DNA from: Candidatus Heimdallarchaeota archaeon
Lineage (GTDB): Archaea; Asgardarchaeota; Heimdallarchaeia; JABLTI01
Direction: 5' to 3'
Length of the DNA stretch: 23,066 nucleotides
Assembly: GCA_019056785.1 (NCBI GenBank)
Contig: DXJV01000048.1
Span: forward strand, 1 to 23,066
Shown here: positions 1,297 to 19,853 of the stretch, one piece after another
Numbering within the stretch: position 1 is the stretch's first letter
How the letters are laid out: each line of letters begins with the position of its first letter
The notes under the pieces: model-generated
What the model saw: only the letters and a program-made list of their open reading frames with translations
Databases searched by the model: none
What the model was told of the DNA's origin: nothing
Position numbers and translations under genes: made by a program

Positions 1297-1998
1297 ATGA
1301 AGAAAATTGGCATTATCGGTGGTTTAAGTGCCTACTCAACTATCGAATACTATCGAATTCTTATTGAAGAATATAATAAAATAAAAGGAAAAAACCACTC
1401 ACCCGAATTAGTTATTGAAAGCCTTGATCTCGAAATTATCAGTGAATTAATGAGAGCCGACAAATGGGATCAAGTGGCTGAAATCCTAATCGAATCTGCG
1501 CAAAATTTGATCCTCGCCGGAGCAGAAATTATTATTATGGCTACCAACACTCCCCATAAGGTCCATTCTGAGATAATAAAGCATGTTCCTTTCCCTTTTC
1601 CGAGCATTATGGATGCAACAGCAGAAGCTATTGTTGCGAAAGGTATTTCAAAAGTGGGCTTGTTGGGCACTCGGTTCACTATGCAAGGTAAATTCTATCC
1701 TGAAACGCTTGCAAAGTATTCCATTGAAATTTTCGTTCCTTCTCCAGAAGATCAAGAGCTAATTAACAATGTCATTTGGAAAGAGTTAGCGCGTCATGAA
1801 TTGAAACAAGAATCGAAAGAGAAGTATCTTGAAATCATCAACAAGCTCATCGAGAATGGAGCCAAAGGCATTATTCTTGGCTGTACAGAAATCCCTCTTC
1901 TCATAAAACAAGAGGATTGTTCTGTACCGGTCTTTGATACGACAGCCATTCATGCAAAAGCAGCATTAAAATTGGCGCTCGAAGAAGATGATCAGTAA
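1297..1998 (+). CDS. Aspartate/glutamate racemase family protein (YgeA/RacX-like, PLP-independent)
   Basis: Motifs MKKIGIIGGLS..ST..YY, MATNTPH, VGLLGTRFTM, ILGCTEI and FDTT.IHA. ATG at 1297 is preferred over TTG at 1294. Confidence 0.93.
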   Translation: MKKIGIIGGLSAYSTIEYYRILIEEYNKIKGKNHSPELVIESLDLEIISELMRADKWDQVAEILIESAQNLILAGAEIIIMATNTPHKVHSEIIKHVPFPFPSIMDATAEAIVAKGISKVGLLGTRFTMQGKFYPETLAKYSIEIFVPSPEDQELINNVIWKELARHELKQESKEKYLEIINKLIENGAKGIILGCTEIPLLIKQEDCSVPVFDTTAIHAKAALKLALEEDDQ

Positions 1999-4667
1999 TT
2001 AGTGAGAATCTTCAGTAAGAGAGGTTCTTTCCTCACTTCTTTTTCTATACTATCGATTATTTTTGCTTCAAGTAAATTTTGAAAAGAAGTATTTATTACT
2101 TTGACCTTTTCGGGCAATTTGTCATCTTGACTATCCTTTTTCTCTAATAGTTGCTTTATTTCACTATCTTCCAGCTTTAATGGCAAGAGCAAATTGTTTA
2201 ATTCATCCTCATATTGTGGTAGTGTTTTTACTTCAAAATATTGTTGATAGGCCAAATAATCGATTAATTTCTGATAAACTGGCAATTGTTTTTTAAGTGT
2301 GATTGCCTGCTGAGACTGATAGGTATATTCTATTTGTTTTACGAGAATTTGATAATCTGCTAATAACTGCAGAAGCTGCTTTGTTGATTCTTTTACTTCT
2401 GCTTTAATTGGCAATTGTTTTAAATAACTGCCATTATACCGTAGAAACCCTCCTGCTAGATGGATATTACTAAATAATATGCTGTAAATGAAATTCATAA
2501 CTTTCGAATTCAGCAATGCCACGAAATATTTACAATCGCTTTTTTCTTCTGGTAGTAACAAATAAACACCGGTTAAACTTGCAAAAATTCCAGGGTCATA
2601 TGCCGCAATTAATTTGTGAGCAACTTCTTTAATCAATATTTTTGGTTCCGTGAAAATTTTCCATGCTTTTTCAATTTCAGGCGAATGTTTTAGAAAATAA
2701 TTTTTGAATCGTTGTTTGGCAAGCGTAAGCTCTTTCTTTGGGTTGACAGCAAAAGGCGAGATATTTGCTGTCCCTATGAAGTATAAATCCTTGGGAGAAG
2801 TTTTTTGTGGGGCTAACCTAGAGAGATTTTTCTGCCAATTAATAAATCCCAATAAACGGTAATGTATTTGGAATTTCTCTCCTAAAAAGTTAGGCTTTTC
2901 TTTTTGGAACAATTTTTTGACATGAGCAAAATCCTCAGAGAGGATAAATTGTTTATTTGGAAATTTTACAAAGTCTTCTTGTGCTACGCTCAAAACTTCT
3001 ACCGCCTCATTTATCAATGCTTCTAACTTGGTTATTTTTGGATAAACCGCGATGTTTTCTTTTTGTTCTTCTTTATTAGCGGTTCGCTTTTGCACCCCGA
3101 TGACGATTGGATAACTTGCCGTTTTCTGAAAGATTGGGAGATAAGAGATATCCACTAATAACCGAATGTTTGTTTTCTCTAGGAGCATTTCTCTTGTTCG
3201 TAGTCCAAAATCGGTTGATAGAAATTTGTTGGTGATCAAATATACCAGAATTCCATTTGGTTTGAGCAATTGCAAACCTCGCTCAATGAATAAAACGGAC
3301 AAGTCATAGAGTTTGTATGCTGTTCTGAAGAGTTGTTTGTACAAGTGTTTTTCGATATTATTGCGCATTTTTTTACACTCAAGATAAGGAGGATTACCAA
3401 GAATAATATCAAAACCGTTGTTTTGCATAATTTCCGGCCAGTGGATGTACCAGTGAAATGGTTTTAATGTGTCATATTCCCTTCTCAGAAAGGGCATTTT
3501 TTTGAACTGCTTCAGTAAATCCCTATAATGAAAATCCTCGAGCTCTTTTTTAGAGGGCATAGTTGAAAGCTTATGTACACCGATCAAACTATTCCCCACA
3601 TAAAGGTTAGTTTGTACAGTCATTCCTTTTTCGATAAGCTCATGACTCGAGTTATCATATGTTTTATTATCATCTTCTTCTAATAACCAGAGGAAAAATT
3701 GCAATTTTGTTAGATTTACTGCTTCTTCTAGGAGATCAACTCCATAAAGGTTATTTTGGATGATGGATGTTTTAATAATAGTTTTAGAAATGGTTTGCTT
3801 ACCTCGTTGTATGGCCATTTGCAGCTTGCTTTGCCAGCTAAACAATATTTCTGCACTGCTAAGAAGAAACGCTCCTGCTCCAACAGATGGATCAAGTATT
3901 TTTACTTCTTGAAGTAACGAAAGGGCATGAACTTTTTCCTCGTTAGGCGCTGTTAAAAGATCTTCAAATGACTCTAATCTTTTCTTTAGTCGGGAAGTCA
4001 AAAACATTAGAAGTGCTTTTTCGCTCATGAAATCAGCTATTGCTTTTGGAGTGTAATAGGCACCAAAATGCCGGCGTTTGTTAAGTAAAGCATCAATCTT
4101 TGTTGTTGCGTCCACATTTTCCAGCAGCATTAAGTCTTGTTCAAAAATCAAACTGAACAACAAACGAATTGTTTCAAGCGACTGTTCTCTCGAGTATTTT
4201 TCAACTAAATTTATTACTGAAGAAGTTATTTCAGAAGAAAAATTAACGCCGCCTTTTGTATATGAGAGTATTTTTGGGAAACAATTTAAGAGAAAAGAAC
4301 TTTTTCTCTCTCTCTGTGCTGTTTTAATGTTTAATTTTTTCTCCAAGAATGTTTTTAGACTTCTTTGCAAATTTTCGAAGAAGTTGTCTGTTGAAGAGTT
4401 TCTGTTCCAAAAAGCACCGGTTTTGTTTTGATTCTTTGCATTTGATTTCAGAAATTTTTTTTCGCTCATAATTACAAGTAAAAACAATGCAAAAATTATT
4501 TCATGGAAATAATCCAGGCGGTCATTTATCTCCATTGTAGAAGGCAAAGATTCTAGCACAAGGTTTCGGAGGTCAATGTATTCTTCATTGAAAGTTTCGA
4601 AAAAATGTTTTTTATTTTCCTGCAAAGCTACATTGTGAAAACTTTTCGATGAGGACGGCATTGACAT
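1992..4667 (-). CDS. N6-adenine DNA methyltransferase, Eco57I/TaqI-like (gamma-type motif order) with C-terminal target-recognition region
   Basis: Motif X GAYYTP, SAM-binding motif I ILDPSVGAGAFL, LYGVDL, GNSL, catalytic motif IV FDIILGNPPY, DLSVLFIERG, and TaqI_C-like EPKILIK...ALLNSK...YLKQLPI. Confidence 0.9.
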   Translation of the reverse strand: MSMPSSSKSFHNVALQENKKHFFETFNEEYIDLRNLVLESLPSTMEINDRLDYFHEIIFALFLLVIMSEKKFLKSNAKNQNKTGAFWNRNSSTDNFFENLQRSLKTFLEKKLNIKTAQRERKSSFLLNCFPKILSYTKGGVNFSSEITSSVINLVEKYSREQSLETIRLLFSLIFEQDLMLLENVDATTKIDALLNKRRHFGAYYTPKAIADFMSEKALLMFLTSRLKKRLESFEDLLTAPNEEKVHALSLLQEVKILDPSVGAGAFLLSSAEILFSWQSKLQMAIQRGKQTISKTIIKTSIIQNNLYGVDLLEEAVNLTKLQFFLWLLEEDDNKTYDNSSHELIEKGMTVQTNLYVGNSLIGVHKLSTMPSKKELEDFHYRDLLKQFKKMPFLRREYDTLKPFHWYIHWPEIMQNNGFDIILGNPPYLECKKMRNNIEKHLYKQLFRTAYKLYDLSVLFIERGLQLLKPNGILVYLITNKFLSTDFGLRTREMLLEKTNIRLLVDISYLPIFQKTASYPIVIGVQKRTANKEEQKENIAVYPKITKLEALINEAVEVLSVAQEDFVKFPNKQFILSEDFAHVKKLFQKEKPNFLGEKFQIHYRLLGFINWQKNLSRLAPQKTSPKDLYFIGTANISPFAVNPKKELTLAKQRFKNYFLKHSPEIEKAWKIFTEPKILIKEVAHKLIAAYDPGIFASLTGVYLLLPEEKSDCKYFVALLNSKVMNFIYSILFSNIHLAGGFLRYNGSYLKQLPIKAEVKESTKQLLQLLADYQILVKQIEYTYQSQQAITLKKQLPVYQKLIDYLAYQQYFEVKTLPQYEDELNNLLLPLKLEDSEIKQLLEKKDSQDDKLPEKVKVINTSFQNLLEAKIIDSIEKEVRKEPLLLKILTNY

Positions 4668-5429: not shown

Positions 5430-6869
5430 TTAAATTCCCCATCGATGTTCTCTTGGGTGGGGGTCGATTAGTTTCAGCATCTCATCTATACCAGGTTCAA
5501 TGCCTTGCATTAGTAAATACCCTTTATTTAGCTCCCGGGTAGTAATTTCGCCAGCGATATTCGTTGTCATGATTCTTTTCACTTCTTTTATATCTCGAGT
5601 TTGGCCAAGCGTCCAGATCATTTTTGCATAAGCTGTTCCCGGCAGCATATTTGCTCCCTCAAATACTCCTCTTGCAAGCATATCTCGCCCTGTCTCGTAA
5701 ACCCTAAGATTTGTAAAGCCAAAGAGTGGTTCCACAACAATGCAGATGGGTATCTCTTCTTCTTGCGCACGTTCCAGGGCAGGGTACATGGCTGTGTTAA
5801 CATGTCCCAGTCCCGTACCAATAAAGATCACCCCGTGATAACCATTATCAATAACTGAGTGCAGCATGTCAGGATTCATTCCCGGATAGAAATAAAGAAT
5901 CGCCACTTTCGGGTCGATTTTTGTGTTTATCCAGGTATCAGCGATATCTCCTCGTCTCTTGACATCCTTTTTAAAGAAGGTAATTTTTTGATTTGCATCA
6001 ATAATTCCCAATGGGATGTCACTTAGAGTACGAAAGGCGTCTCGTCGACTGGAATGCATTTTCCTTACCCGCGTACCACGATGGATAAGATTATAGGAAT
6101 CGCTTGTGCCGCCATGCATACAGACGACCACTTCAGCCAGGTCCGCTTTGCCAGCAATAGTACTGGCATTAATGATATTTAATGGTCCATCACTTGATGG
6201 TCTATCACTACTTCTTTGACTACCAACAAGAACAATGGGAGCTGCCAAATCTTGAAAGATAAATGAAAGAGCTGAGGCAGTGAAACTCATAGTGTCAGTG
6301 CCATGGCCAATAATAACGCCATCTGCTCCACTCTCAAATTCCTTCATCACAGCTTCAGCTGTTTTAACCCAGTACTCAGGTTGGAAGTTCTCAGAAAGAA
6401 GAGAGTAGATTTTTTTCGGCGTAAGATTACAAATATCCATTAATTCCGGCACAGCACTAAAAAGCTCTTCTGGGGTAAATGCCGGGAGTACTGCACCAGT
6501 GCGATAGTCTAACCGAGAGGCAACCGTTCCTCCTGTTCCGAGGAGAGTTACATTGGGCAAGCCTTCTTTAAATCGAATATTAACGTCTGGGAGTTTATAA
6601 TGCCCTTCTTTATACCCTTGTTCTTTAATGGTTGTTTCTGGAGTAATCTTTACACCGATATTATAACCAGTATCTACTTTTAGCACTAAATAACCTTCAG
6701 CTGTATGATCACTTCGTGGGAGAATAACACCCTCATAAATAGCATCACCTTTTTTCACAACAACTTCGCTCCAAACCCCAACCCCTTCCTTCTCGAGTCG
6801 TTTCCGCAATTCCCCTCGATAGCCGATAGGCTCTTTCTGCTTTGCTTTGTTCTTCTTCGTAGTCGACAT
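5430..6869 (-). CDS. gatD: Glutamyl-tRNA(Gln) amidotransferase subunit D
   Basis: GatD N-terminal domain (YEGVILPR...LKVDTGYNIG) plus asparaginase-like motifs TGGTVASRLDYRTGAV, HGTDTM, GSQRSSDRPSSD, KMHSSRRDAF and GTGLGHV. Likely ATG start at 6869 (479 aa). Confidence 0.96.
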   Translation of the reverse strand: MSTTKKNKAKQKEPIGYRGELRKRLEKEGVGVWSEVVVKKGDAIYEGVILPRSDHTAEGYLVLKVDTGYNIGVKITPETTIKEQGYKEGHYKLPDVNIRFKEGLPNVTLLGTGGTVASRLDYRTGAVLPAFTPEELFSAVPELMDICNLTPKKIYSLLSENFQPEYWVKTAEAVMKEFESGADGVIIGHGTDTMSFTASALSFIFQDLAAPIVLVGSQRSSDRPSSDGPLNIINASTIAGKADLAEVVVCMHGGTSDSYNLIHRGTRVRKMHSSRRDAFRTLSDIPLGIIDANQKITFFKKDVKRRGDIADTWINTKIDPKVAILYFYPGMNPDMLHSVIDNGYHGVIFIGTGLGHVNTAMYPALERAQEEEIPICIVVEPLFGFTNLRVYETGRDMLARGVFEGANMLPGTAYAKMIWTLGQTRDIKEVKRIMTTNIAGEITTRELNKGYLLMQGIEPGIDEMLKLIDPHPREHRWGI

Positions 6870-7005
6870 TTTTGCGTTCCTAGCTCTCGTTGCTCTTTTT
6901 TCTTTAAAAGCTCTCTGATAACTTTTGCAGTTCAAAGAAAGAAATGAATCATGCTTTCGAACATAGTTTTTGTATGATCTTAATCGATTTAAGCTAACCT
7001 CCAAC

Positions 7006-8997: not shown

Positions 8998-10377
8998 ATG
9001 ATTGATCAAATGCTAAAAGGGATAGAGTATGGCAATGAATTCAAGGTCGATTTTATTGACATACGCTATCAAGAGAAATATCGAGCGAATTTCCAGTCTC
9101 GAGATGGTGAATTAACAGCAGACACCGGTTCGCGGCGAGGATTTTCGACTCGTGTAATAATCGATGGGGCACTTGGCTTTGCTTCTACCACCTCTATTGC
9201 TCTGGCTGACTTGAAGTCCGCAATCGAAGCGGCAGCAAAATTAGCTAGAAGTGCTGCTCCTGTAGTGAAAGAAAAAATCGTTTTTGCAGATGTCAAACCT
9301 CAACAAGATAAGGTTGAAACAAACCAAGTGAAGCTTTTGCAGAATGTTTCTATTGCAGAAAAAATGGAGATGATCAAAGAAGCAGAGAAGACTTTCAAAG
9401 ATTTTTCAGAAGTCAAAAGCTACACCATAGGTTATGAAGAGATGATTGACCATCGCATTGTGGTTAATAACGAAGGAACTCAAATTGAGCAAAAGATTGC
9501 TATTCCCGCTGTGCGAGTGCAAGCAACAGCTGTTCGTGGGACAAAAATTGCCAGTTATCATGATGCTTGGAGTAAAGCCAAAGGATTTGAACTAGTTGAT
9601 GAACACCCGTTAGTGGAGCTTGCCCAGCATGTTGCAGAAACAGCCACTAAGAATTTAGATGCTACTCTTCCACCTGGAGGCCCAACGAAAGTTGTGATCG
9701 ATAATACTGTGGTGGGTATTCTGGCTCATGAAGCTGTCGGACACCTCTTTGAAAGTGATCTGGTGGAAGCCGGCAGTTTTGCTAAAGGAAAATTAGGGCA
9801 GAAAATTGTTTCAGAGCTTATTACCATCATTGATGCCCCTGTTCTCGAAGATGCTTCTGGTTGGTATATGTATGATGACGAAGGAACCAAAGGACGTGCT
9901 GTTGAGTTGATCAAGAATGGTGTTGTTTCTGGTTTCATGAACAACCGATTTTATGCTGCAAAATATGATATGGAACCAACTGGCAATGCTCGAGCATTCA
10001 ATTTTAATGATGAGCCCCTTGTCCGGATGCGAAACACCTACATTGTTCCGGGCGACTTTTCTGACGAGGAATTATTTGAAGCTGTTAAGGATGGCCTTTT
10101 CGTCACTGGCTTTATGAATGGCTCTGCGGACACTTCAGGTGAATTCATGGTAGGTACAGGCCAAGCAATAGAAATTAAAAATGGCAAACTTACTGACAAA
10201 GTGTTTATTGGTCCCACCATGTCTGGGAATTCTATTGAAGTGCTTTCCTCCACTCTGGGTGTTGGGAAGGAATTAGCCTTGAATCTTGGCACAGGCTTTT
10301 GCGGTAAAGAACAGCTTGCAAAAGTCGATGCAGGTGGCGGTAAAGTTGCCTGTACAGTTATTCTTGGAGGGCGGTAA
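8998..10377 (+). CDS. tldD: TldD metalloprotease, catalytic subunit
   Basis: HExxxH motif (HEAVGH), YDDEG, TGNARA, PLVRMRNTYI and the C-terminal metal-ligand Cys in GFCGK. Confidence 0.93.
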   Translation: MIDQMLKGIEYGNEFKVDFIDIRYQEKYRANFQSRDGELTADTGSRRGFSTRVIIDGALGFASTTSIALADLKSAIEAAAKLARSAAPVVKEKIVFADVKPQQDKVETNQVKLLQNVSIAEKMEMIKEAEKTFKDFSEVKSYTIGYEEMIDHRIVVNNEGTQIEQKIAIPAVRVQATAVRGTKIASYHDAWSKAKGFELVDEHPLVELAQHVAETATKNLDATLPPGGPTKVVIDNTVVGILAHEAVGHLFESDLVEAGSFAKGKLGQKIVSELITIIDAPVLEDASGWYMYDDEGTKGRAVELIKNGVVSGFMNNRFYAAKYDMEPTGNARAFNFNDEPLVRMRNTYIVPGDFSDEELFEAVKDGLFVTGFMNGSADTSGEFMVGTGQAIEIKNGKLTDKVFIGPTMSGNSIEVLSSTLGVGKELALNLGTGFCGKEQLAKVDAGGGKVACTVILGGR

Positions 10378-10379
10378 CT

Positions 10380-11744
10380 ATGCTTGAAGAACTCTTTCCT
10401 ACATGTCAGAAAGTTATTGATGCTTCTGAAAAGAAGGGTGTAGAAGCCATCGAGATTTTTCTTTCATACAATAAACAACAGCAAGTTATTCTTAATGGTT
10501 TGAGTATTGGTACACAAAGAGCAAAAGAAGAAGCAGGTGCGGGGATTCGTGTCCTTCATAACAATGCTGAAGGATTTTCTTATACGAACAACTTAACTTT
10601 CGATTCCTTATTAGCAACAGCATTAGAAGCTCACAGTATCGCTCAACACGCACCGAAAATTGAAGGTGTTGCTCTTGCAACAGTTAAAACTGTGCCTACT
10701 GTTAAAGGAACTTATTCACAAGAACTTGCAGAGCTTTCAGCTGATGCTTTGACAAAAGATGGCTTGAACTTTCTCAAAGGATTTACCAGTATTGATCCTC
10801 GAATCCGTACCGTACTCAGTAATATCACTAATATTGTTGCTGAACGAGCGATTATTAATTCGAATGGGGTGAAAGTAACCACTAAAAACAGTAGCTTCCA
10901 AGCCGGGTTAATGGCAGTGGCAAGTGATAAGACTCGTGCTGGCGGATATGTTTTTGATGATGCTTTCAGCCGGAAGCATGATGTTGATTTTTATTCGAAA
11001 GGCATCGAACTTGGAAAAAGAGCGATTAATGGCTTGAAACAAGAACCCATAAAAGCCTTTGACGGGCCAATAATTTTCGAACCAAATGCGATTTTTAATC
11101 CGATAGCTATCGTTCTAGGGTTAACCACTTCCGCTGACTGGCGACAACGGGGCATCTCATTCTGGCGTGATAAACTTGCTGATAAAGTTGCAGCCGAGAA
11201 TTTTCAGCTCATAGATAAACCCCATGACTTACAAGGTGGTGCAGGCGTTAGACCATTTGACGATGAAGGAACCCCTACAAATGAGCTCCCTATTATTCAA
11301 GATGGCATTCTTCAAACATTCTTACATAATATTCGAACAGCCAATAAAGAAAACCTCAAGTCAACCGGACATGCAATGCGTGGTTTAGGCAATCAAGCTA
11401 CCTTCACACAAAAACCTACGAACGCGTTCTTTAACTCGCCCTGGATATTAGCCGGTGATGTTAGTAAAGAAGAAATGATTCAAGAAACTCGAAAAGGACT
11501 TATCATCCATAACTACCAGGGAACTGTTCGACACCAGAATGGCATTTTTTCCGGTGTGGCAAAAGGCGCACATTTAATCGAAAATGGTGAGATTACCAAA
11601 CCAGTTACAGGCGTGTCAATCTCAGGAAATGTCTTTGATCTTATTAATAACATTCGAGCTATCGGTAAAGAATACCATCTTGCCAGCGGCTTTTTAACTA
11701 CACCAATAATTCAGTTTGATGGAATAAGAATTTCGACGAAGTAA
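10380..11744 (+). CDS. pmbA: PmbA/TldE, non-catalytic partner of TldD
   Basis: Motifs GAGIRV, RPFDDEG, STGHA and IENGEI..PV...ISGN. Lacks HExxxH and starts 2 bp after tldD. Confidence 0.9.
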   Translation: MLEELFPTCQKVIDASEKKGVEAIEIFLSYNKQQQVILNGLSIGTQRAKEEAGAGIRVLHNNAEGFSYTNNLTFDSLLATALEAHSIAQHAPKIEGVALATVKTVPTVKGTYSQELAELSADALTKDGLNFLKGFTSIDPRIRTVLSNITNIVAERAIINSNGVKVTTKNSSFQAGLMAVASDKTRAGGYVFDDAFSRKHDVDFYSKGIELGKRAINGLKQEPIKAFDGPIIFEPNAIFNPIAIVLGLTTSADWRQRGISFWRDKLADKVAAENFQLIDKPHDLQGGAGVRPFDDEGTPTNELPIIQDGILQTFLHNIRTANKENLKSTGHAMRGLGNQATFTQKPTNAFFNSPWILAGDVSKEEMIQETRKGLIIHNYQGTVRHQNGIFSGVAKGAHLIENGEITKPVTGVSISGNVFDLINNIRAIGKEYHLASGFLTTPIIQFDGIRISTK

Positions 11745-14028: not shown

Positions 14029-15333
14029 TTAATAACGCATCAAGTACCTTTGCTTTTCCCATTCTGTCACTTGTAAACGATATTCATCCCATTCCTTTAA
14101 TTTTGCTTGGATGTAGGAGGTATAAAGTGGTTCTTCAAAGACAGCTTTCACTAATGCTGACTTTTTGATATAGCTTATTGCTTCCCAAAGGCTTGCAGGC
14201 AATTGATCGACATTAAGGGAACGTAATTCTTCTCCTTTCAGGTCGTAAAGATTCTCCTGACGAGGTGGAGGTGCTGGGAGTTTTTGGCGAATACCTTCTA
14301 AGCCTGCTTCCAGCATAACTGCCAAAGCCAGATAAGGATTACACATAGGGTCTGGACATCGAAGTTCAGCTCTTACGGAGGAGCTTCTATTCTTTGGTAT
14401 TTGTGGTATTCTAATAAGGGCAGATCGATTGAGTTGTGCCCAGCTTATGTAGACAGGTGCTTCATAACCGGGAACAAGACGCTTATAGGAATTCACTGTT
14501 GGTGCAATAACTCCCACAAGTTCTTTAGCAAACTTCAATTGCCCTGCAATAAAATGTTTAGCAATGTCTGAAAGGAGCATATCGTCATCAGGATCGTAGA
14601 ATGCATTCTCACCATCTTTAGTCCAGAGGGATTGGTGACAATGCATCCCACTCCCATTTTGCCTAAAAAAGGGTTTGGGCATAAACGATGCTATAAGAGA
14701 ATGTTGCCTAGCAATTGTTTGGATCAGAAGTTTCATCATCATAATCCTATCTGCCGTTTCAAGTGCTTCACTATAGCGAAAGTCAATCTCTTGTTGTCCC
14801 CTCGCAACTTCGTGGTGGCCCATTTCACATTGTATGCCCATTTTCTTTGCACCTAAAAGAATTTCTTGCTTAATTTCAAACCCTTTATCAAATGGTGAGC
14901 TATCAAAGTATCCCGCTGGGTCCATTGGAGCATAGTAACCATTTTTTTGTTCAAGTAGGAAGAACTCAAGTTCCGCTCCAACCTTATATTTGAAGCCCAG
15001 TTCTTCTGCTCTTTTACAGGCTCTTCGTAGCACATCTCGAGGGTCTCCTTTAAAGGGGAGATTTTTGGGAGTATAAATATCTGCCCAGAGACAGGCCACC
15101 TTTGGATTCCAAGGCAATTCAGTTAGTGTGTTAATATCCGGTCTCAAATAGAGATCTGATTCGATTATTCTGGTAAATCCTTGTATTGATGAACCATCGA
15201 ACCAGATTCCTTCTTCCGGGTTATCTTTCATACTCTCACTCGGTATGGTCACACTTTTCAAGACACCATGAATATCACTGAACTGCACTTGTATTGTGTG
15301 ATATTTTTCCAGTTTTTCTTTTAATCCATCCAT
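14029..15333 (-). CDS. glnA: Glutamine synthetase type I (GSI-alpha-like)
   Basis: Motifs FDGSSI, GAELEFFL, HHEVARGQQEI, FMPKP...NGSGMHCHQSL, NSYKRLVPGYEAP, NRSALIRIP and ELRCPDPMCNPYLA. Confidence 0.97.
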   Translation of the reverse strand: MDGLKEKLEKYHTIQVQFSDIHGVLKSVTIPSESMKDNPEEGIWFDGSSIQGFTRIIESDLYLRPDINTLTELPWNPKVACLWADIYTPKNLPFKGDPRDVLRRACKRAEELGFKYKVGAELEFFLLEQKNGYYAPMDPAGYFDSSPFDKGFEIKQEILLGAKKMGIQCEMGHHEVARGQQEIDFRYSEALETADRIMMMKLLIQTIARQHSLIASFMPKPFFRQNGSGMHCHQSLWTKDGENAFYDPDDDMLLSDIAKHFIAGQLKFAKELVGVIAPTVNSYKRLVPGYEAPVYISWAQLNRSALIRIPQIPKNRSSSVRAELRCPDPMCNPYLALAVMLEAGLEGIRQKLPAPPPRQENLYDLKGEELRSLNVDQLPASLWEAISYIKKSALVKAVFEEPLYTSYIQAKLKEWDEYRLQVTEWEKQRYLMRY

Positions 15334-15384
15334 TCCAGAACCTCTTAAGAATATTTTTTACTCATTCTGTAACCAGTGAATCAT

Positions 15385-15445
15385 TATTGCAAAAAAATGC
15401 TACTTTATGCAATATTTTTAGCATAATTATAGAAAAAAGGCAATA
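15385..15445. promoter_or_regulatory. Candidate Lrp-family operator region between divergent glnA and lrp
   Basis: TTGCAAAAAAATGCTA and TATGC-N10-GCATA imperfect palindromes; TGC recurs at 15388, 15398 and 15408 (10-bp phasing). Confidence 0.4.
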
Positions 15446-15502
15446 ATTTTTATATCTTTTGCCCTCCTTTATAATTTAACTATCAAAAAGAAGTGATAAA
15501 GT

Positions 15503-15958
15503 ATGATCCTTGATGATGTTGATAAAAAAATACTTCAAATCTTAATTGACGATGCCAGAACTCCTGTACTCGAAATTGCTAATCAGACCGGAAAACACTT
15601 AACAACAATTACGAGAAGAATCAAGACACTAGAACAGGAGGGAGTAATTCAAGGCTACGCTGCGATTGTTGATTATGAAGCACTTGGCTTTGATTTAACA
15701 GTAATTATTGAACTTACTTTGGCAAGAGGAAAGCTCTTTAAAGTCGAACATGAAATTGCTGCGCTCCCTGGTGTGCTAAGTGTTTATGATGTGACTGGAA
15801 AAATAGATGCAATCTTAATTGCGAAATTCAAGAATCGTCGTGAAGTAAGCGAGTTTGCGAAAAAACTTTTAGCCATGCCTTTTGTCGAACGAACCGAAAC
15901 GCACATTGTGTTAAATATCATTAAAGAAGACATCCGGTTAAGTAAAGAACTCGATTGA
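15503..15958 (+). CDS. Lrp/AsnC family transcriptional regulator
   Basis: N-terminal HTH (LDDVDKKILQIL..DAR...EIA...RRIKTLEQEGVIQGY) and RAM domain (VYDVTGKID...VERTETHIVL). Confidence 0.95.
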   Translation: MILDDVDKKILQILIDDARTPVLEIANQTGKHLTTITRRIKTLEQEGVIQGYAAIVDYEALGFDLTVIIELTLARGKLFKVEHEIAALPGVLSVYDVTGKIDAILIAKFKNRREVSEFAKKLLAMPFVERTETHIVLNIIKEDIRLSKELD

Positions 15959-16076: not shown

Positions 16077-16511
16077 ATGACAAGTTCCGATAAAAAAGAA
16101 ACCATCACACGCACAGGTATTTCTCTCGAGAGTGATTTGCTTAAAGAATTTGATGTATGGCTTAAACAGCGGAGCTTTCCTAACCGTAGCGAAGGCATTC
16201 GTTTTCTAATTAGAGAGAAATTAGACCAAGAAATTCTTGTGGCTAAAAAAGACCTTCAAGTGGTAGGTTCACTTACATATATTTTCGATCATCACGGCTT
16301 TGATTCATCCTTAAAATTAACAGAGATTCAACATGATTTTGGACATCTTATTATCTCAACTATGCATGCACATATTACACATGATATTTGCTTGGAAACG
16401 ATTTTTCTTCGTGGAAGGCAAGATGAAGTTCGAAAGCTTGCCGACGCCATTTTGGCATTAAAAGGTGTACAAAAGGGCCAGATTTATCTCATCCCCTCAC
16501 ACCAACAATGA
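16077..16511 (+). CDS. nikR: Nickel-responsive transcriptional regulator NikR
   Basis: Ribbon-helix-helix RTGISL...FD...NRSEGIR and the high-affinity Ni ligand set QH...HAH.....CLE, plus YIFDHH. ATG at 16077 follows GAGGA. Confidence 0.94.
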   Translation: MTSSDKKETITRTGISLESDLLKEFDVWLKQRSFPNRSEGIRFLIREKLDQEILVAKKDLQVVGSLTYIFDHHGFDSSLKLTEIQHDFGHLIISTMHAHITHDICLETIFLRGRQDEVRKLADAILALKGVQKGQIYLIPSHQQ

Positions 16512-16577
16512 GAAAAAAGGCAAAAGAACTTTTAATATCTCACTCTTCTCTCCTAATAGAAAGAAATGTTTCCCAGC

Positions 16578-17438
16578 TTATTGATGCTGTTGTACAATCC
16601 CCCTTCGTTTTTTCGGTGAAAAAATCACGCTTACAACGAAAATAATACTCGAAACAATAATAATTGATGATCCTATAGGGAAGTTTGTCATGAATGAAAG
16701 GAGGACCCCACCTATGGCTGAAATTATACCAACAACAGGGGAGAAAATGAAGATTTTTTTCGTATCGTAAGCAAATTGATAGACTGTTGATGTAGGATTC
16801 ACGATTAATGCATAGACTAGCAATGCTCCAACAATTTTTAAGGTGAATGAGACCGTTAATGCCGTTAGAAACAGTATAAGGAAATTAAAGAAGCTCACAT
16901 TTATTCCTGCAGCTAAAGCGACTTTTCGATGAAACATTGTCGCCAGGAATTCTTTGTAAAAGATGATTATAATTGCCACTATTGCAAGATTAACTAATCC
17001 CAGAAGCAAGAAATCCAACCAGTCAAGTCCAAAAACGCTTCCCCATAGAATTTGAACGGCTTCGCTGCTAACAACACCGGACGGCAAGAAGCTTAGGAAG
17101 ATGAACCCCAAAGCTAATGACAAAGTGAAAATGATCCCGAGTACAACATTGGGGTTCAGTCTTGTTTTTTCAGACATTGGCCCTAAAAGTAAAGCAACAG
17201 CAATTGCAAAAATTGACGCAGAAATCAGAGGATCAAAAGAGAGATAACTGTTAATAAGCAATCCTAATGCCGCTCCGGCAAAAGCAGCATGAGACATTGA
17301 AAATCCTATTGCAGTTATTTTAAGATGAACAACAAAAACACCTATCAACGAACAGGCCATACCTGCAAGCGTTGCGCCAAGTATCACCTTGAAAAGCAGT
17401 TGCAACGAAAGTCTGCTAAATAAAAATAACAAGTCCAT
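16578..17438 (-). CDS. Metal ABC transporter permease (ZnuB/MntB, ABC-3 family)
   Basis: Multi-TM protein with SLIGVFVV...MSHAAFAG.ALG, ILWGS, KIVGALLV.AL...P and FPIGSSII. Confidence 0.92.
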   Translation of the reverse strand: MDLLFLFSRLSLQLLFKVILGATLAGMACSLIGVFVVHLKITAIGFSMSHAAFAGAALGLLINSYLSFDPLISASIFAIAVALLLGPMSEKTRLNPNVVLGIIFTLSLALGFIFLSFLPSGVVSSEAVQILWGSVFGLDWLDFLLLGLVNLAIVAIIIIFYKEFLATMFHRKVALAAGINVSFFNFLILFLTALTVSFTLKIVGALLVYALIVNPTSTVYQFAYDTKKIFIFSPVVGIISAIGGVLLSFMTNFPIGSSIIIVSSIIFVVSVIFSPKKRRGIVQQHQ

Positions 17439-17457
17439 TGGTCATCCTCCCATGTCA

Positions 17458-18333
17458 TTATTTTTCTTGTGCCGTTTTCGCGGCATTGTACACTCCTTTT
17501 TCTGCTTGAGAAAGCTCAATAAAGGCTTTATATAACGGTGAAGTGAGTGCCTTTTCTCGTTCACTATTCATAATGATCCGTCCGTTTTGCATCAGAATCA
17601 CTTTGTCTGTTTCAGGAGGGATGCCTAAATTATGTGAAACACAAAGAATTGTTACTCCTGCCTCTCGATTTAATTTTAGCAACAACTGATAAATGTCATG
17701 TCGTGCATTTATGTCTAAATTGGCAAATGGCTCATCTAATAACAACACTTCAGGTTCACCCGCCAAAGCTGATGCTATCATAACTTTTTGCTGCTGGCCA
17801 GCGGAAAGTTTGCCGATCGGTCTCCCCCAAAACGCCTCCATCCCGACGGCTTCGAGACTAGCCCGCACAATTTCCCAATCACGCTTTGTTACACGTTTAC
17901 CAACACCAATTAGGCCTATCCGCCCAATTAAAACAACATCTTTGACGAGAAAGGGCTCTGAAGGGTCAAAATCCATCTCTTGAATAACATAACCAATTCG
18001 TTTACGTATTTGATGCCCATACTTTTTTGTCGATAAGCCGAAAACTTCCACTGAACCTTCACGCAAAGGCAATATACCACAAATTGTTTCTAAAAGAGTC
18101 GTTTTGCCAGCGCCATTTGGCCCGATAATAAAAAGAATCTCTCCCTTTTTCACTCGAAGGGAGATATCCTGTATTGTTGGGATACGTTCTCCTTCGTAGA
18201 CGGTAGTAGCACTATCAAGTACAATGATTTCATCAGTGGATCCTTCTTGTAATGCTTTTTCTGCTCGTGGGTTGAGAATTTCAGATAGTTTTGGATTAAG
18301 AGCTTGTAGAAAGGTGTTAGAGCTGAAACTCAT
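17458..18333 (-). CDS. Metal ABC transporter ATP-binding protein (ZnuC-like)
   Basis: Walker A GPNGAGKTT, Q-loop GYVIQ, signature LSAGQQQ, Walker B LLLDEP and H-loop VSH. Start overlaps the upstream stop (ATGA). Confidence 0.94.
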   Translation of the reverse strand: MSFSSNTFLQALNPKLSEILNPRAEKALQEGSTDEIIVLDSATTVYEGERIPTIQDISLRVKKGEILFIIGPNGAGKTTLLETICGILPLREGSVEVFGLSTKKYGHQIRKRIGYVIQEMDFDPSEPFLVKDVVLIGRIGLIGVGKRVTKRDWEIVRASLEAVGMEAFWGRPIGKLSAGQQQKVMIASALAGEPEVLLLDEPFANLDINARHDIYQLLLKLNREAGVTILCVSHNLGIPPETDKVILMQNGRIIMNSEREKALTSPLYKAFIELSQAEKGVYNAAKTAQEK

Positions 18334-18746
18334 TCCAAAATCTCCAAAAAATCCTCTGCCGGCATTTTGGCATACTCGAGTGCTACTTGTCGCACTTGCT
18401 CCGTTACTAAACCTTTGAGGTCAGGGTGTTTAAGCAAACGAAAGAGAATAGTTTTGTCGTCTTTGATGAATTTTGCTTCTGGTATCCCACTATCTTCGAT
18501 TTTTATGTTGCCTTTACCGAGTGTGCAACCAGAGATAAATTGAATTCCATCTACCATACACGAAAGAGGGGGGGTAATCCCTGTGTAGACGATTGCTTTC
18601 ATCTTAAAGGGATCAAACCCCAATCGCTCTATGGCAATTTCTGCCATTCTCGCACCAATGATGAGGTAGGGACCTAAATGGGTATGGAAACGTCCAAGAA
18701 GGTCAACAACTTCTTGGACTTTGAATGGAGCATATTCCGCTTTCAT
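18330..18746 (-). CDS. FmdE/FwdE family protein (putative metal-binding/chaperone)
   Basis: FHTHLGPYLIIGARM and SCMVDGIQFISGCTLGKGNI motifs. Likely ATG start at 18746 (138 aa) after GAAGGGG. Confidence 0.88.
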   Translation of the reverse strand: MKAEYAPFKVQEVVDLLGRFHTHLGPYLIIGARMAEIAIERLGFDPFKMKAIVYTGITPPLSCMVDGIQFISGCTLGKGNIKIEDSGIPEAKFIKDDKTILFRLLKHPDLKGLVTEQVRQVALEYAKMPAEDFLEILE

Positions 18747-18777
18747 TTTTTTCCCCTTCAATTTTTGATTCTGGCTC

Positions 18778-19767
18778 TTAGTGTTTCTTCTGCTTGTTTC
18801 TTTTTTCCTGGTGGAGGAAATAGGGGGCAATAATAATTATACTAGTCAATCCAACAAACAGCCCCAAGGCAGAATTTGCACTATTCCCCGTAGCAGAAAA
18901 TGCTTGTCGTATTTGCTCCAAATTGTACTCCAACATACTCAAATAATTTGCTGCTTCTGGATCGTTTTGCGGGAAATTTGTTAAAATTGCATGGGGAATG
19001 CCCAAGTCATTAGCAATTTCTTCCCCAACATTTGTGCCTGATTGAAGATTGCTAATGACAATTTCAGCTTGCGCCTCAGCCGCTTCTGTAATTAACGCTG
19101 CCACTTCTTGCACGGACATTAATTCATCAGATTTCGACCAATTCGCCACGACATCTAAGCCAAGGAAGCTGGTAAAACCAAATTGATGGATCATTACCAC
19201 AGCTTTCTTGTGGAGTAAGCTGTAGTTCTGAGCTAATTCTTGCAGCTCAAGTGCTTTTGCATTTATCTGATTAGTGTAAGTCTGTAAGTTTGTATTAAAT
19301 TGGCTTGCAAGCCCGGCATAAGTATTATTTAACTTTGCAGTGATAACCTCGAGATACTTGATTGCATTTGCCGGTACACCCCAAGGAGCTCCTGCAACAA
19401 GTGGGCCTAGAGGATATTTCGCAGATGATTTATTCACACTAGTCAAGAGATCATCTAACCATTGCCCTTCAAAACCATGACAAAAAACAATATCGGCATC
19501 TTGAACAAGTGCAATATCTCCTGGTTCGGAATCATAATGTGCAGGACAAGTTCCCGGGTTAATTATTGGCTCAATCTCTTTACCAATAATTGCCCCGACA
19601 AAGTCAGCAAGTGTTGTTGTTGTCACTGCGACATTAACTCCCACAGCCTTAGCAATATTCTGCCTATTAATTTGTATATTCACTGCCATATTTTTTGGCA
19701 CTACATTTGATGCCAAAAGCAACAAACCCAATATAATTATAAACGCACTTTTTTTCTTGAGTGTCAT
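18778..19767 (-). CDS. Metal ABC transporter substrate-binding protein (ZnuA/TroA-like) with N-terminal signal and C-terminal membrane anchor
   Basis: VAVTTTTLADFV..I, IINPGTCPAHYD..PGD....DADIVF.HGFE..W and YLSMLEYNL. Hydrophobic N- and C-termini with a basic tail. Likely ATG start at 19767. Confidence 0.88.
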   Translation of the reverse strand: MTLKKKSAFIIILGLLLLASNVVPKNMAVNIQINRQNIAKAVGVNVAVTTTTLADFVGAIIGKEIEPIINPGTCPAHYDSEPGDIALVQDADIVFCHGFEGQWLDDLLTSVNKSSAKYPLGPLVAGAPWGVPANAIKYLEVITAKLNNTYAGLASQFNTNLQTYTNQINAKALELQELAQNYSLLHKKAVVMIHQFGFTSFLGLDVVANWSKSDELMSVQEVAALITEAAEAQAEIVISNLQSGTNVGEEIANDLGIPHAILTNFPQNDPEAANYLSMLEYNLEQIRQAFSATGNSANSALGLFVGLTSIIIIAPYFLHQEKRNKQKKH

Positions 19768-19811
19768 TTTTTCCGTTGCCCCTTCCAATGTTCTTGTAGA
19801 GCACGAAGTGT

Positions 19812-19836
19812 TAACACGATTTTCGAAATTGTGTTA
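19812..19836. promoter_or_regulatory. Putative NikR operator (TAACAC-N13-GTGTTA inverted repeat)
   Basis: TAACACGATTT-tcg-AAATTGTGTTA has 10 of 11 arm positions complementary. It lies 8 bp downstream of the operon's TATA box, over the expected transcription start. Confidence 0.7.
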
Positions 19837-19844
19837 CTAATCCC

Positions 19845-19853
19845 TTTATAAAA
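19845..19853 (-). promoter_or_regulatory. TATA box of the metal ABC operon
   Basis: Minus strand TTTTATAAA preceded by CCCAAAA (possible BRE), about 80 nt upstream of the binding-protein start. Confidence 0.55.

Follow-up and report, generated by a model that had tools for sequence, protein, structure and literature searches.

A candidate NikR-controlled nickel uptake operon of the ZnuABC/ABC-3 type, with an embedded FmdE protein, in a Heimdallarchaeota archaeon

Four adjacent genes in a Candidatus Heimdallarchaeota archaeon probably form a nickel uptake system that is built on a ZnuABC/ABC-3 chassis and repressed by NikR, as judged from their sequences and surroundings. The genes lie in a 23,066-nt stretch of contig DXJV01000048.1, the whole of which we refer to as the window. 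The genome encodes HypA and more than one large subunit of [NiFe] hydrogenase, and this gene content indicates that the organism needs nickel. CbiM, NicO (NiCoT) and HupE were not found in the genome, which is 82.5% complete and might hold further nickel transporters in the part that is missing. Nik/CbiMNQO, NikABCDE and NiCoT are the sole archaeal nickel transporters in published surveys (PMC2667541), and the literature that we searched for NikR together with FmdE, ZnuA or TroA, or for FmdE together with nickel, does not describe the present class (the Ni/Co survey of Rodionov et al. 2006 fell outside this coverage). The features of the locus are as follows.

16077-16511, plus strand: nikR, 144 aa, with an RHH domain and a NikR_C nickel-binding domain
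16578-17438, minus strand: permease of the ABC-3 family, 286 aa, at the end of the operon (PF00950, E = 1.4e-50)
17458-18333, minus strand: ABC ATPase, 291 aa (PF00005, E = 2.4e-31)
18330-18746, minus strand: short FmdE-family protein, 138 aa (PF02663, E = 2.7e-23)
18778-19767, minus strand: ZnuA-family (cluster A-I) substrate-binding protein, 329 aa (PF01297, E = 4.5e-30)
19811-19837: predicted NikR operator, an inverted repeat matching the reversed NikR signal of PMC545781
19846-19853, minus strand: TATA-like box TTTATAAA, read off the sequence and preceded by an A-rich BRE-like stretch

The order on the minus strand is binding protein, FmdE, ATPase and permease, and the operon is convergent with nikR, the stop codons of nikR and the permease being 66 nt apart. 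The preliminary description had read four tightly packed genes here, and all of its coordinates and spacings are confirmed: 31 nt separate the binding-protein stop codon from the ATG of FmdE, the FmdE stop codon and the ATPase start codon overlap in ATGA, and the gap between ATPase and permease is 19 nt. The permease has a further Pfam match, to FecCD, which falls under the cut-off of that family.

The convergence on an intact nikR likewise holds, with both domains present and the four nickel ligands kept. The Pfam match to NikR_C is strong (E = 9.5e-27), that to RHH_1 scores 19.0 bits, slightly under its cut-off, and the protein aligns over its full length with 1q5v (E = 7e-22) and 2bj1 (E = 1e-20). 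The nickel-site ligands H76, H87, H89 and C95 of E. coli NikR (1q5v) are all preserved in the alignment, and Asp34 of the potassium-ion site is replaced by Phe. The sequence traits of the NikR family are thus present in domain composition (RHH and NikR_C), in the His3Cys ligand set and in a predicted palindromic operator with two half-sites, which in NikR systems lie about 13-16 bp apart. No second NikR was found in the genome at 82.5% completeness.

The strong inverted repeat noted earlier at the operon promoter is borne out, with two 11-nt arms (19812-19822 and 19826-19836) that are 91% complementary. Read as half-sites, it gives the 27-bp palindrome GTAACAC-N13-GTGTTAa, a match to the reversed NikR signal published for delta-proteobacteria, GTAACAC-[N13/14]-GTGTTAC (PMC545781). 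This predicted operator lies 8 nt downstream of the TATA-like box, and the ATG of the binding protein follows 43 nt past it; archaeal promoter geometry suggests that the box is the promoter of the operon. At up to one mismatch, the 27-mer pattern has a single occurrence in the 2.87-Mb genome (82.5% complete). In the forward orientation, GTGTTA-N15-TAACAC, the box is not matched well anywhere in the window, and the region upstream of nikR has no comparable repeat, so that autoregulation of nikR is not indicated.

The operator is also found in relatives. When loci L005-L009 are compared, it is conserved and its flanks have diverged. The half-sites are retained in relatives whose FmdE proteins are 93%, 74% and 67% identical to that of the window, although in one of these the promoter sequence is unrelated and the flanks differ, and a separate lineage with the order nikR<>SBP-ATPase-permease-FmdE carries a box with N15 spacing. 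To place these cases in a wider sample, we collected 80 loci, one per species, that were selected by the binding-protein motif alone. At up to one mismatch and with N13 spacing, they contain 13 boxes, against 0.2 in shuffled sequences, and each of the 13 lies at the 5' end of the ORF for the binding protein, mostly the first gene of its operon; some occur in phyla in which nikR is elsewhere in the genome. Most of the 80 loci have no box at this criterion. A looser search (up to two mismatches, spacers of 12-16 nt) gave 39 boxes in related loci and 24 in shuffles, and because this excess is only modest, the stricter criterion and the position of the boxes are what carry the statistic.

This importer class is widespread, with members in many archaeal and bacterial phyla, and the synteny search suggested in the preliminary description ties orthologous operons to nikR and to the repeat across many of them, the reverse of the outcome that it had set as a refutation. 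An FmdE gene lies within 6 kb in 44 of the 80 loci and nikR in 16, every one of the nikR-linked loci (16/16) also having FmdE, and the placement of nikR varies, with four or more arrangements. Among 50 genomes that carry the module, NikR occurs in 46-47 and HypA in 40; CbiM was found in about 4 of the 28 genomes in which the module contains FmdE. Many of the genomes examined have NikR and HypA and no CbiM.

A further comparison comes from a sister species (G009), whose NikR is 70% identical and converges on cbiM/nikM(N), nikM being the usual nickel importer, a gene whose promoter bears GTAACAC-N13-GTGTTAt directly after a TATA-like box. Within the genus, the module occurs in G000 and G008, CbiM in G003, G006 and G009, and both in no genome. 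The organism itself encodes a second, canonical ZnuA-ABC3-ATPase operon on another contig (C80), which has neither FmdE nor NikR and whose ZnuA has His at each of the three motifs where ligands are expected, as in Synechocystis ZnuA. A nickel role for the operon in the window appears much more likely than one in zinc or manganese uptake, because of the association with the NikR box, the box on nikM of the sister species and the separate canonical ZnuABC; the same observations support the earlier suggestion that a system of the ZnuABC fold has been turned to nickel.

The binding protein itself has an N-terminal signal or anchor and a C-terminal membrane helix, and its only Pfam match is to ZnuA (105.5 bits against a cut-off of 29). 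Its AlphaFold model (pLDDT 86) gives TM-scores of 0.6-0.77 to MntA, AztC, YfeA, PsaA and ZnuA, and Foldseek finds MntA, AztC, YfeA and PsaA at E ~1e-14, in keeping with the cluster A-I fold of two Rossmann-like lobes linked by a long rigid helix. The canonical four-ligand site, either three His with Asp or water or two His with Glu and Asp, is absent. In the alignment, the His of ligand 1 has moved by one residue and lies inside a CPAH motif, the His of ligand 2 is deleted, the position of ligand 3 holds His here and Trp in most relatives, and the Asp of ligand 4 is lost, with an invariant N264-F265 in its place. Of the resulting Cys-Pro-x-His motif, C74 and P75 are kept by all 81 sequences and H77 by 73, and the invariant set in the pocket, a placement judged by sequence alignment only, also comprises Gln195 and Asn264. 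The metal pocket is, by this alignment, remodelled around Cys-Pro-x-His. An invariant Cys is uncommon among binding proteins for zinc and manganese.

The FmdE protein consists of the core domain alone, and its PF02663 match, though above the cut-off, covers only profile positions 1-83 of 133; it has neither a signal peptide nor the C-terminal zinc ribbon. Across 39 operon-linked homologues, H21, H23, C63 and C74 are invariant. The Cys of the FHGHxC motif is replaced by an invariant Gly25, and the two His, the equivalent of Cys55, and the Asp, Gln and Thr are retained. FmdE had been linked to metal transporters as early as 2010, and the core site in an FmdE crystal bound zinc and nickel at a Zn:Ni ratio of 2.6:1, nickel that possibly came from the purification resin (PMC2954224).

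The operon could instead encode an ordinary importer of Zn, Mn or Fe of the ZnuABC/MntABC/Yfe kind, with the NikR-like protein sensing that metal or regulating something else. We consider this unlikely, though it is the best placed of the other explanations. The Pfam families (ZnuA and ABC-3) fit it, as do the public names of the binding-protein family, which are zinc or generic metal-binding ('zinc/metal ABC transporter substrate-binding protein'), and the mainly zinc-filled FmdE crystal site. It also draws on Methanothermobacter, for which Kaster et al. guessed that a NikR homologue of such a cluster senses zinc (PMC3087415). In M. marburgensis, the ZnuA-like protein MTBMA_c09840, which is encoded beside nikR2 and may or may not belong to the CPxH subfamily, shows no consistent rise under nickel limitation, and the later iron-limitation triplicates show it and NikR2 raised about 3- to 4-fold (PMC12350162, supplement files 8 and 6). 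Our profile search did not reach Methanothermobacter. Against such an importer stand the His3Cys nickel site retained in NikR, the 70%-identical NikR of the sister species, where nikM carries the same box, the canonical ZnuABC with the usual His ligands elsewhere in the genome, the binding protein that is without canonical ligands 2 and 4 and has the unusual invariant Cys, and the mutual exclusion of the module and CbiM within the genus. Observations that count against a nickel role include the Methanothermobacter expression data, the zinc annotation, the zinc-rich FmdE crystal and, among the 80 loci, the presence of nikR near only 16 and the lack of a box at up to one mismatch in most.

That the imported metal is cobalt, or nickel and cobalt together, seems to us improbable. 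Nickel and cobalt transporters often belong to sister families, such as Nik/CbiMNQO and NiCoT (PMC2667541). No sequence feature separates the two metals here, and the CbiM beside NikR in the sister species is assigned at Pfam level only. Against cobalt, no B12 genes were seen beside the modules examined, and in Thermoplasmata genomes the module is often within 10 kb of hypA. To our knowledge, no NikR regulator responds to cobalt in cells, and control by a B12 riboswitch is usual for cobalt importers.

The preliminary description had argued that FmdE is no dehydrogenase subunit since the window has no other fmd or fwd gene. The argument proves weak, as the genome encodes a true FwdA (739 bits, contig C25) and two Ftr genes on contigs other than that of the window, yet the conclusion still holds because 23 of the 28 genomes with an FmdE-containing module are without FwdA. 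For FmdE to serve formylmethanofuran dehydrogenase, for instance in metal or cofactor insertion, and merely share the transporter operon is the least probable alternative, although such a role at a distance keeps a small probability in this organism, given its FwdA: FwdA and the two Ftr genes are accompanied by a single FmdE gene, no second one having been found in the genome, and the founding members of the family sit in fmdECB operons (PMC2954224), but FwdA is present in 15 of the 22 genomes whose module has no FmdE and missing from most that have it, FmdE is translationally coupled to the ATPase, and the solved Fwd/Fmd complex does not contain FmdE (PMC11237513).

Returning to nickel uptake, the gene content, the operator match and its conservation, and the ligand and phyletic patterns are observed, whereas which metal is carried, that NikR represses the operon and what FmdE does are inferred in the following scheme. 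With enough cytoplasmic Ni(II), the square-planar His3Cys sites of the NikR tetramer would be filled and the tetramer would bind the palindrome at 19811-19837, next to the TATA-like box and in all likelihood over the start of transcription, which would thereby be blocked. When nickel is scarce, NikR would leave the DNA and the four genes would be transcribed as a single unit. The membrane-tethered binding protein would capture extracellular nickel through its Cys-Pro-x-His pocket, and the permease dimer and ATPase would pump the metal inward. FmdE, which would be co-translated with the ATPase and carries the invariant His-x-His...Cys...Cys set, may be a cytoplasmic metal acceptor; this small protein would most likely receive the incoming nickel, or else keep the transporter active. 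A more specific version, in which the thiolate-histidine pair of CPxH captures nickel, possibly as a chelate in an invariant Gln/Asn-rich pocket, and FmdE is a dedicated nickel acceptor that docks on the importer, we offer only tentatively.

Nickel is required by hydrogenases, CO dehydrogenase and methyl-coenzyme M reductase and so underpins anaerobic energy metabolism, and the function of FmdE has been unsettled since the 1990s. If the nickel reading is true, the module would supply the missing importer in genomes that have NikR and HypA without CbiM and mend a systematic mis-annotation as 'zinc ABC transporter'. The specificity of the cluster A-I family would be extended to a new metal, with cysteine as a ligand, and FmdE would gain a testable role. 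If the more specific version holds, FmdE proteins in general would be metal-delivery factors, which would settle their role in fmd operons, and the module would be a major way, so far overlooked, in which strictly anaerobic archaea and bacteria obtain nickel.

The proposed regulatory logic is shared with NikR-nikABCDE of E. coli and the predicted NikR regulons (nikMNQO) of delta-proteobacteria (Rodionov et al. 2004, PMC545781), in which a nickel-loaded NikR tetramer acts on a 27-28-bp palindrome of a nickel ABC importer. The half-sites GTAACAC/GTGTTAC of the delta-proteobacterial signal match, with the orientation reversed as had first been noticed in D. psychrophila (PMC545781). Unlike those bacterial systems, this one belongs to an Asgard archaeon, so that repression must act on a TATA/TFB-type promoter. 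Where NikABCDE, of the peptide/opine class, has an SBP_bac_5 NikA with two permeases and two ATPases, this operon encodes a single ABC-3 permease and a single ATPase, and in contrast to the Nik/CbiMNQO ECF systems, which have CbiM/NikM for substrate capture and CbiQ as T-component, neither the window nor the genome yielded a CbiM.

With ZnuABC, MntABC, PsaABC, AztABC and YfeABCD, the importer shares its fold (TM-score 0.6-0.77), its Pfam families and its three-part architecture, but two of the four canonical ligands are gone and the pocket has Cys-Pro-x-His, Gln195 and Asn264. It further differs from ZnuABC-type importers in its predicted control by NikR instead of Zur, MntR or Fur and in its extra FmdE gene. 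In its alpha+beta core, His-x-His, Cys55-equivalent and D..Q...T motif, this FmdE resembles the proteins encoded in fmdECB operons as well as the PF02663 structures 2glz, 2gvi and 3d00 (Axelrod et al. 2010), whereas the FHGHxC Cys has become an invariant Gly, a second invariant Cys (C74) is present, and the zinc ribbon and adjacent fmd genes are absent. A parallel is Helicobacter NiuBDE, an ABC importer for nickel that is under NikR control without belonging to the NikA type and that needs a cytoplasmic metal-binding accessory, SlyD, which contacts the permease (PMC5140060, PMC7840056). NiuBDE is of the FecCD/cluster A-II kind, and SlyD, an unrelated PPIase chaperone, has its gene elsewhere (PMC5140060, PMC7840056), whereas here the putative partner, FmdE, is encoded within the operon.

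The window, which is the entire 23-kb contig of an Asgard archaeal metagenome-assembled genome (2.87 Mb, 102 contigs, 82.5% complete), carries the five genes of the module at the positions and with the spacing (from the binding protein onward 31 nt, an ATGA overlap and 19 nt) reported in the preliminary description, and the inverted repeat noted there at the operon promoter is present as a 27-bp palindrome.

Features of the window (coordinates, strand where assigned, description)
1992-4667, fused restriction-modification methylase, Eco57I/MmeI-like, 891 aa
4750-5316, ferritin-like gene
5430-7004, GatD
8998-11744, TldD/PmbA pair
16077-16511, + strand, nikR
16578-17438, - strand, ABC-3 permease
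17458-18333, - strand, ABC ATPase
18330-18746, - strand, FmdE core-domain protein, 138 aa
18778-19767, - strand, ZnuA-family binding protein
19811-19837, near-perfect palindrome GTAACAC-N13-GTGTTAa, 8 nt beyond the TATA-like TTTATAAA
19846-19853, TATA-like TTTATAAA, upstream of the binding-protein gene

The N-terminus of the binding protein is signal-like, and its C-terminus forms a membrane helix; FmdE lacks both features and should therefore be cytoplasmic. A glutamine synthetase gene adjoins a divergent Lrp/AsnC regulator (14029-15958), a pairing that is kept in two loci with related operons (L005 and L007), not in a third (L008), and that marks the border of the mobile five-gene module. 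The methylase, the ferritin-like gene, GatD and the TldD/PmbA pair are all ordinary.

The NikR of the window aligns over its full length with the E. coli and Pyrococcus proteins and retains the square-planar nickel site (His76, His87, His89 and Cys95). The residue equivalent to Asp34 of E. coli NikR, which is part of a potassium-ion site joining the two domains, is Phe here, as it is in the NikR of the sister species. Rodionov et al. 2004 (PMC545781) reported a NikR signal in reversed orientation, GTAACAC-[N13/14]-GTGTTAC, which the palindrome matches; at one mismatch or fewer the palindrome occurs once in the 82.5% complete genome. From the usual archaeal TATA-to-start distance, transcription should start inside the palindrome. 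The operon is very likely under NikR control.

The same arrangement (binding protein-FmdE-ATPase-permease with a convergent nikR) recurs in relatives whose FmdE is 93%, 74% and 67% identical to that of the window, and in every one of them both half-sites are kept at the N13 spacing, even in one relative where the flanking genes and promoter sequence are unrelated to those of the window. In another lineage nikR is divergent from a binding protein-ATPase-permease-FmdE operon, with GTAACAC-N15-GTGTCAC between them. For a broader survey we collected 80 loci, one per species, by the binding-protein motif alone, and determined their content from profile scans of ORFs. They come from Archaea (Asgard archaea, Bathyarchaeia, Thermoplasmata, Thermoproteota, Thermococci, Archaeoglobi, Theionarchaea and Korarchaeia) and Bacteria (Atribacterota, Acetothermia, Aerophobetes, Thermotogae, Omnitrophota and Elusimicrobiota). 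FmdE lies within 6 kb in at least 44 of the 80 loci and nikR in at least 16, these counts being lower bounds because many contigs end early; all 16 nikR-linked loci have FmdE, and nikR is placed in no fewer than four ways with respect to the operon. Boxes with the N13 spacer and no more than one mismatch number 13 in the 80 loci, against 0.2 in shuffles, and all 13 lie at the start of the binding-protein ORF, in most cases the leading gene of the operon. Among the 13 are boxes in Atribacterota, Thermococci and Theionarchaea loci without an adjacent nikR. Of the 50 genomes examined for NikR, 46-47 encode it. The preliminary description would have been refuted by orthologous operons that lack an association with nikR or the repeat; this association is present across many phyla.

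Several variants of this organization were observed. The N13 spacer is itself TATA-like in several archaeal loci, e.g. CATTTATAAAATC (L008:4973-4999, L035:2976-3002, L065:5867-5893 and L098:6379-6405); at these loci NikR would bind on both sides of the TATA box, and in the window it would bind downstream of it. Two Thermococci loci (L050:3535-4521 and L065:5867-6828) have a binding protein of the subfamily with a perfect or near-perfect box, and ATPase, permease and FmdE are all absent within 6 kb; they resemble orphan binding proteins under NikR control. Two Theionarchaea loci (L068 and L071) have the order FmdE-ATPase-permease-binding protein with boxes before both FmdE and the binding-protein gene, which suggests two NikR-controlled promoters. 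In some binding proteins of the subfamily (P0041, P0043 and P0044) an N-terminal dockerin-type domain (PF00404) replaces the C-terminal membrane anchor.

Within the genus, the module is present only in G000 and G008. In the sister species (G009), a NikR 70% identical to that of the window and with the same DNA-reading strand is encoded convergently on a cbiM/nikM(N) gene, whose promoter carries GTAACAC-N13-GTGTTAt directly past a TATA-like box. Searches detected CbiM in G003, G006 and G009, and no genome of the genus shows both CbiM and the module. At least 10 genomes from another genus of the class have NikR and CbiM about 2 kb apart. The module thus occupies the regulatory slot that the nickel ECF importer normally holds.

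The window genome encodes several [NiFe]-hydrogenase large subunits and HypA, and searches for CbiM, NicO and HupE/UreJ in this 82.5% complete genome found none. Its contig C80 carries an operon of canonical ZnuA (189 bits), ABC-3 permease and ATPase, without FmdE or NikR; this ZnuA, like that of Synechocystis, carries a His ligand in each of the three expected motifs, and it is 25% identical to the window binding protein. In Thermoplasmata genomes, hypA is located within about 1-10 kb of nikR or of the module (G076:C1:21387-22747; G053:C81; G057:C3; G079:C41). The nickel-uptake role first proposed for the operon is supported by the nickel site of NikR, the match of the box, the survey and the sister-species nikM box, and nickel import is the best-supported function and probably the correct one. 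One caveat comes from M. marburgensis (PMC12350162): the binding protein beside nikR2 shows no consistent rise under nickel limitation, and its level is elevated in the later triplicates recorded for iron limitation. A further caveat is the zinc-sensing NikR homologue suggested by Kaster et al. for the Methanothermobacter cluster (PMC3087415).

The binding protein has the cluster A-I fold and a non-canonical metal site. The ligand-1 His is displaced by one residue, inside the invariant Cys-Pro-x-His motif; the DPHxW motif has lost its ligand-2 His by deletion; the ligand-3 position holds His in the window and Trp in most relatives, with a conserved Gln adjoining; and another residue stands in place of the ligand-4 Asp, beside an invariant Asn-Phe-Pro. 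Cys74 is conserved in all 81 binding-protein sequences, and an extracellular thiolate ligand fits the strictly anaerobic distribution. The substrate would be nickel, as the free ion or as a chelate.

For the FmdE core domain, Axelrod et al. 2010 described a His-His-Cys-Cys site with Zn and some Ni, and found that most PF02663 genes adjoin metal-ion transporters (PMC2954224). H21, H23, C63 and C74 are invariant in 39 operon-linked homologues, every one of which has Gly in place of the canonical motif Cys. Other Asgard genomes encode short FmdE paralogues that stand alone, without a transporter in the vicinity (L012:6001-6438, L014:6001-6423 and L016:3766-4161), two of them adjoining Arf/Ras-like small GTPase genes. 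A formylmethanofuran dehydrogenase role had been discounted from the lack of any other fmd/fwd gene in the window, an argument that was incomplete, since the genome encodes FwdA and Ftr; nevertheless, FwdA was not detected in 23 of the 28 genomes with an FmdE-containing module. FmdE is not a component of the solved Fwd complex (PMC11237513). The closest functional precedent for FmdE is SlyD, whose contact with NiuD is required for the Niu nickel importer of Helicobacter to function (PMC7840056).
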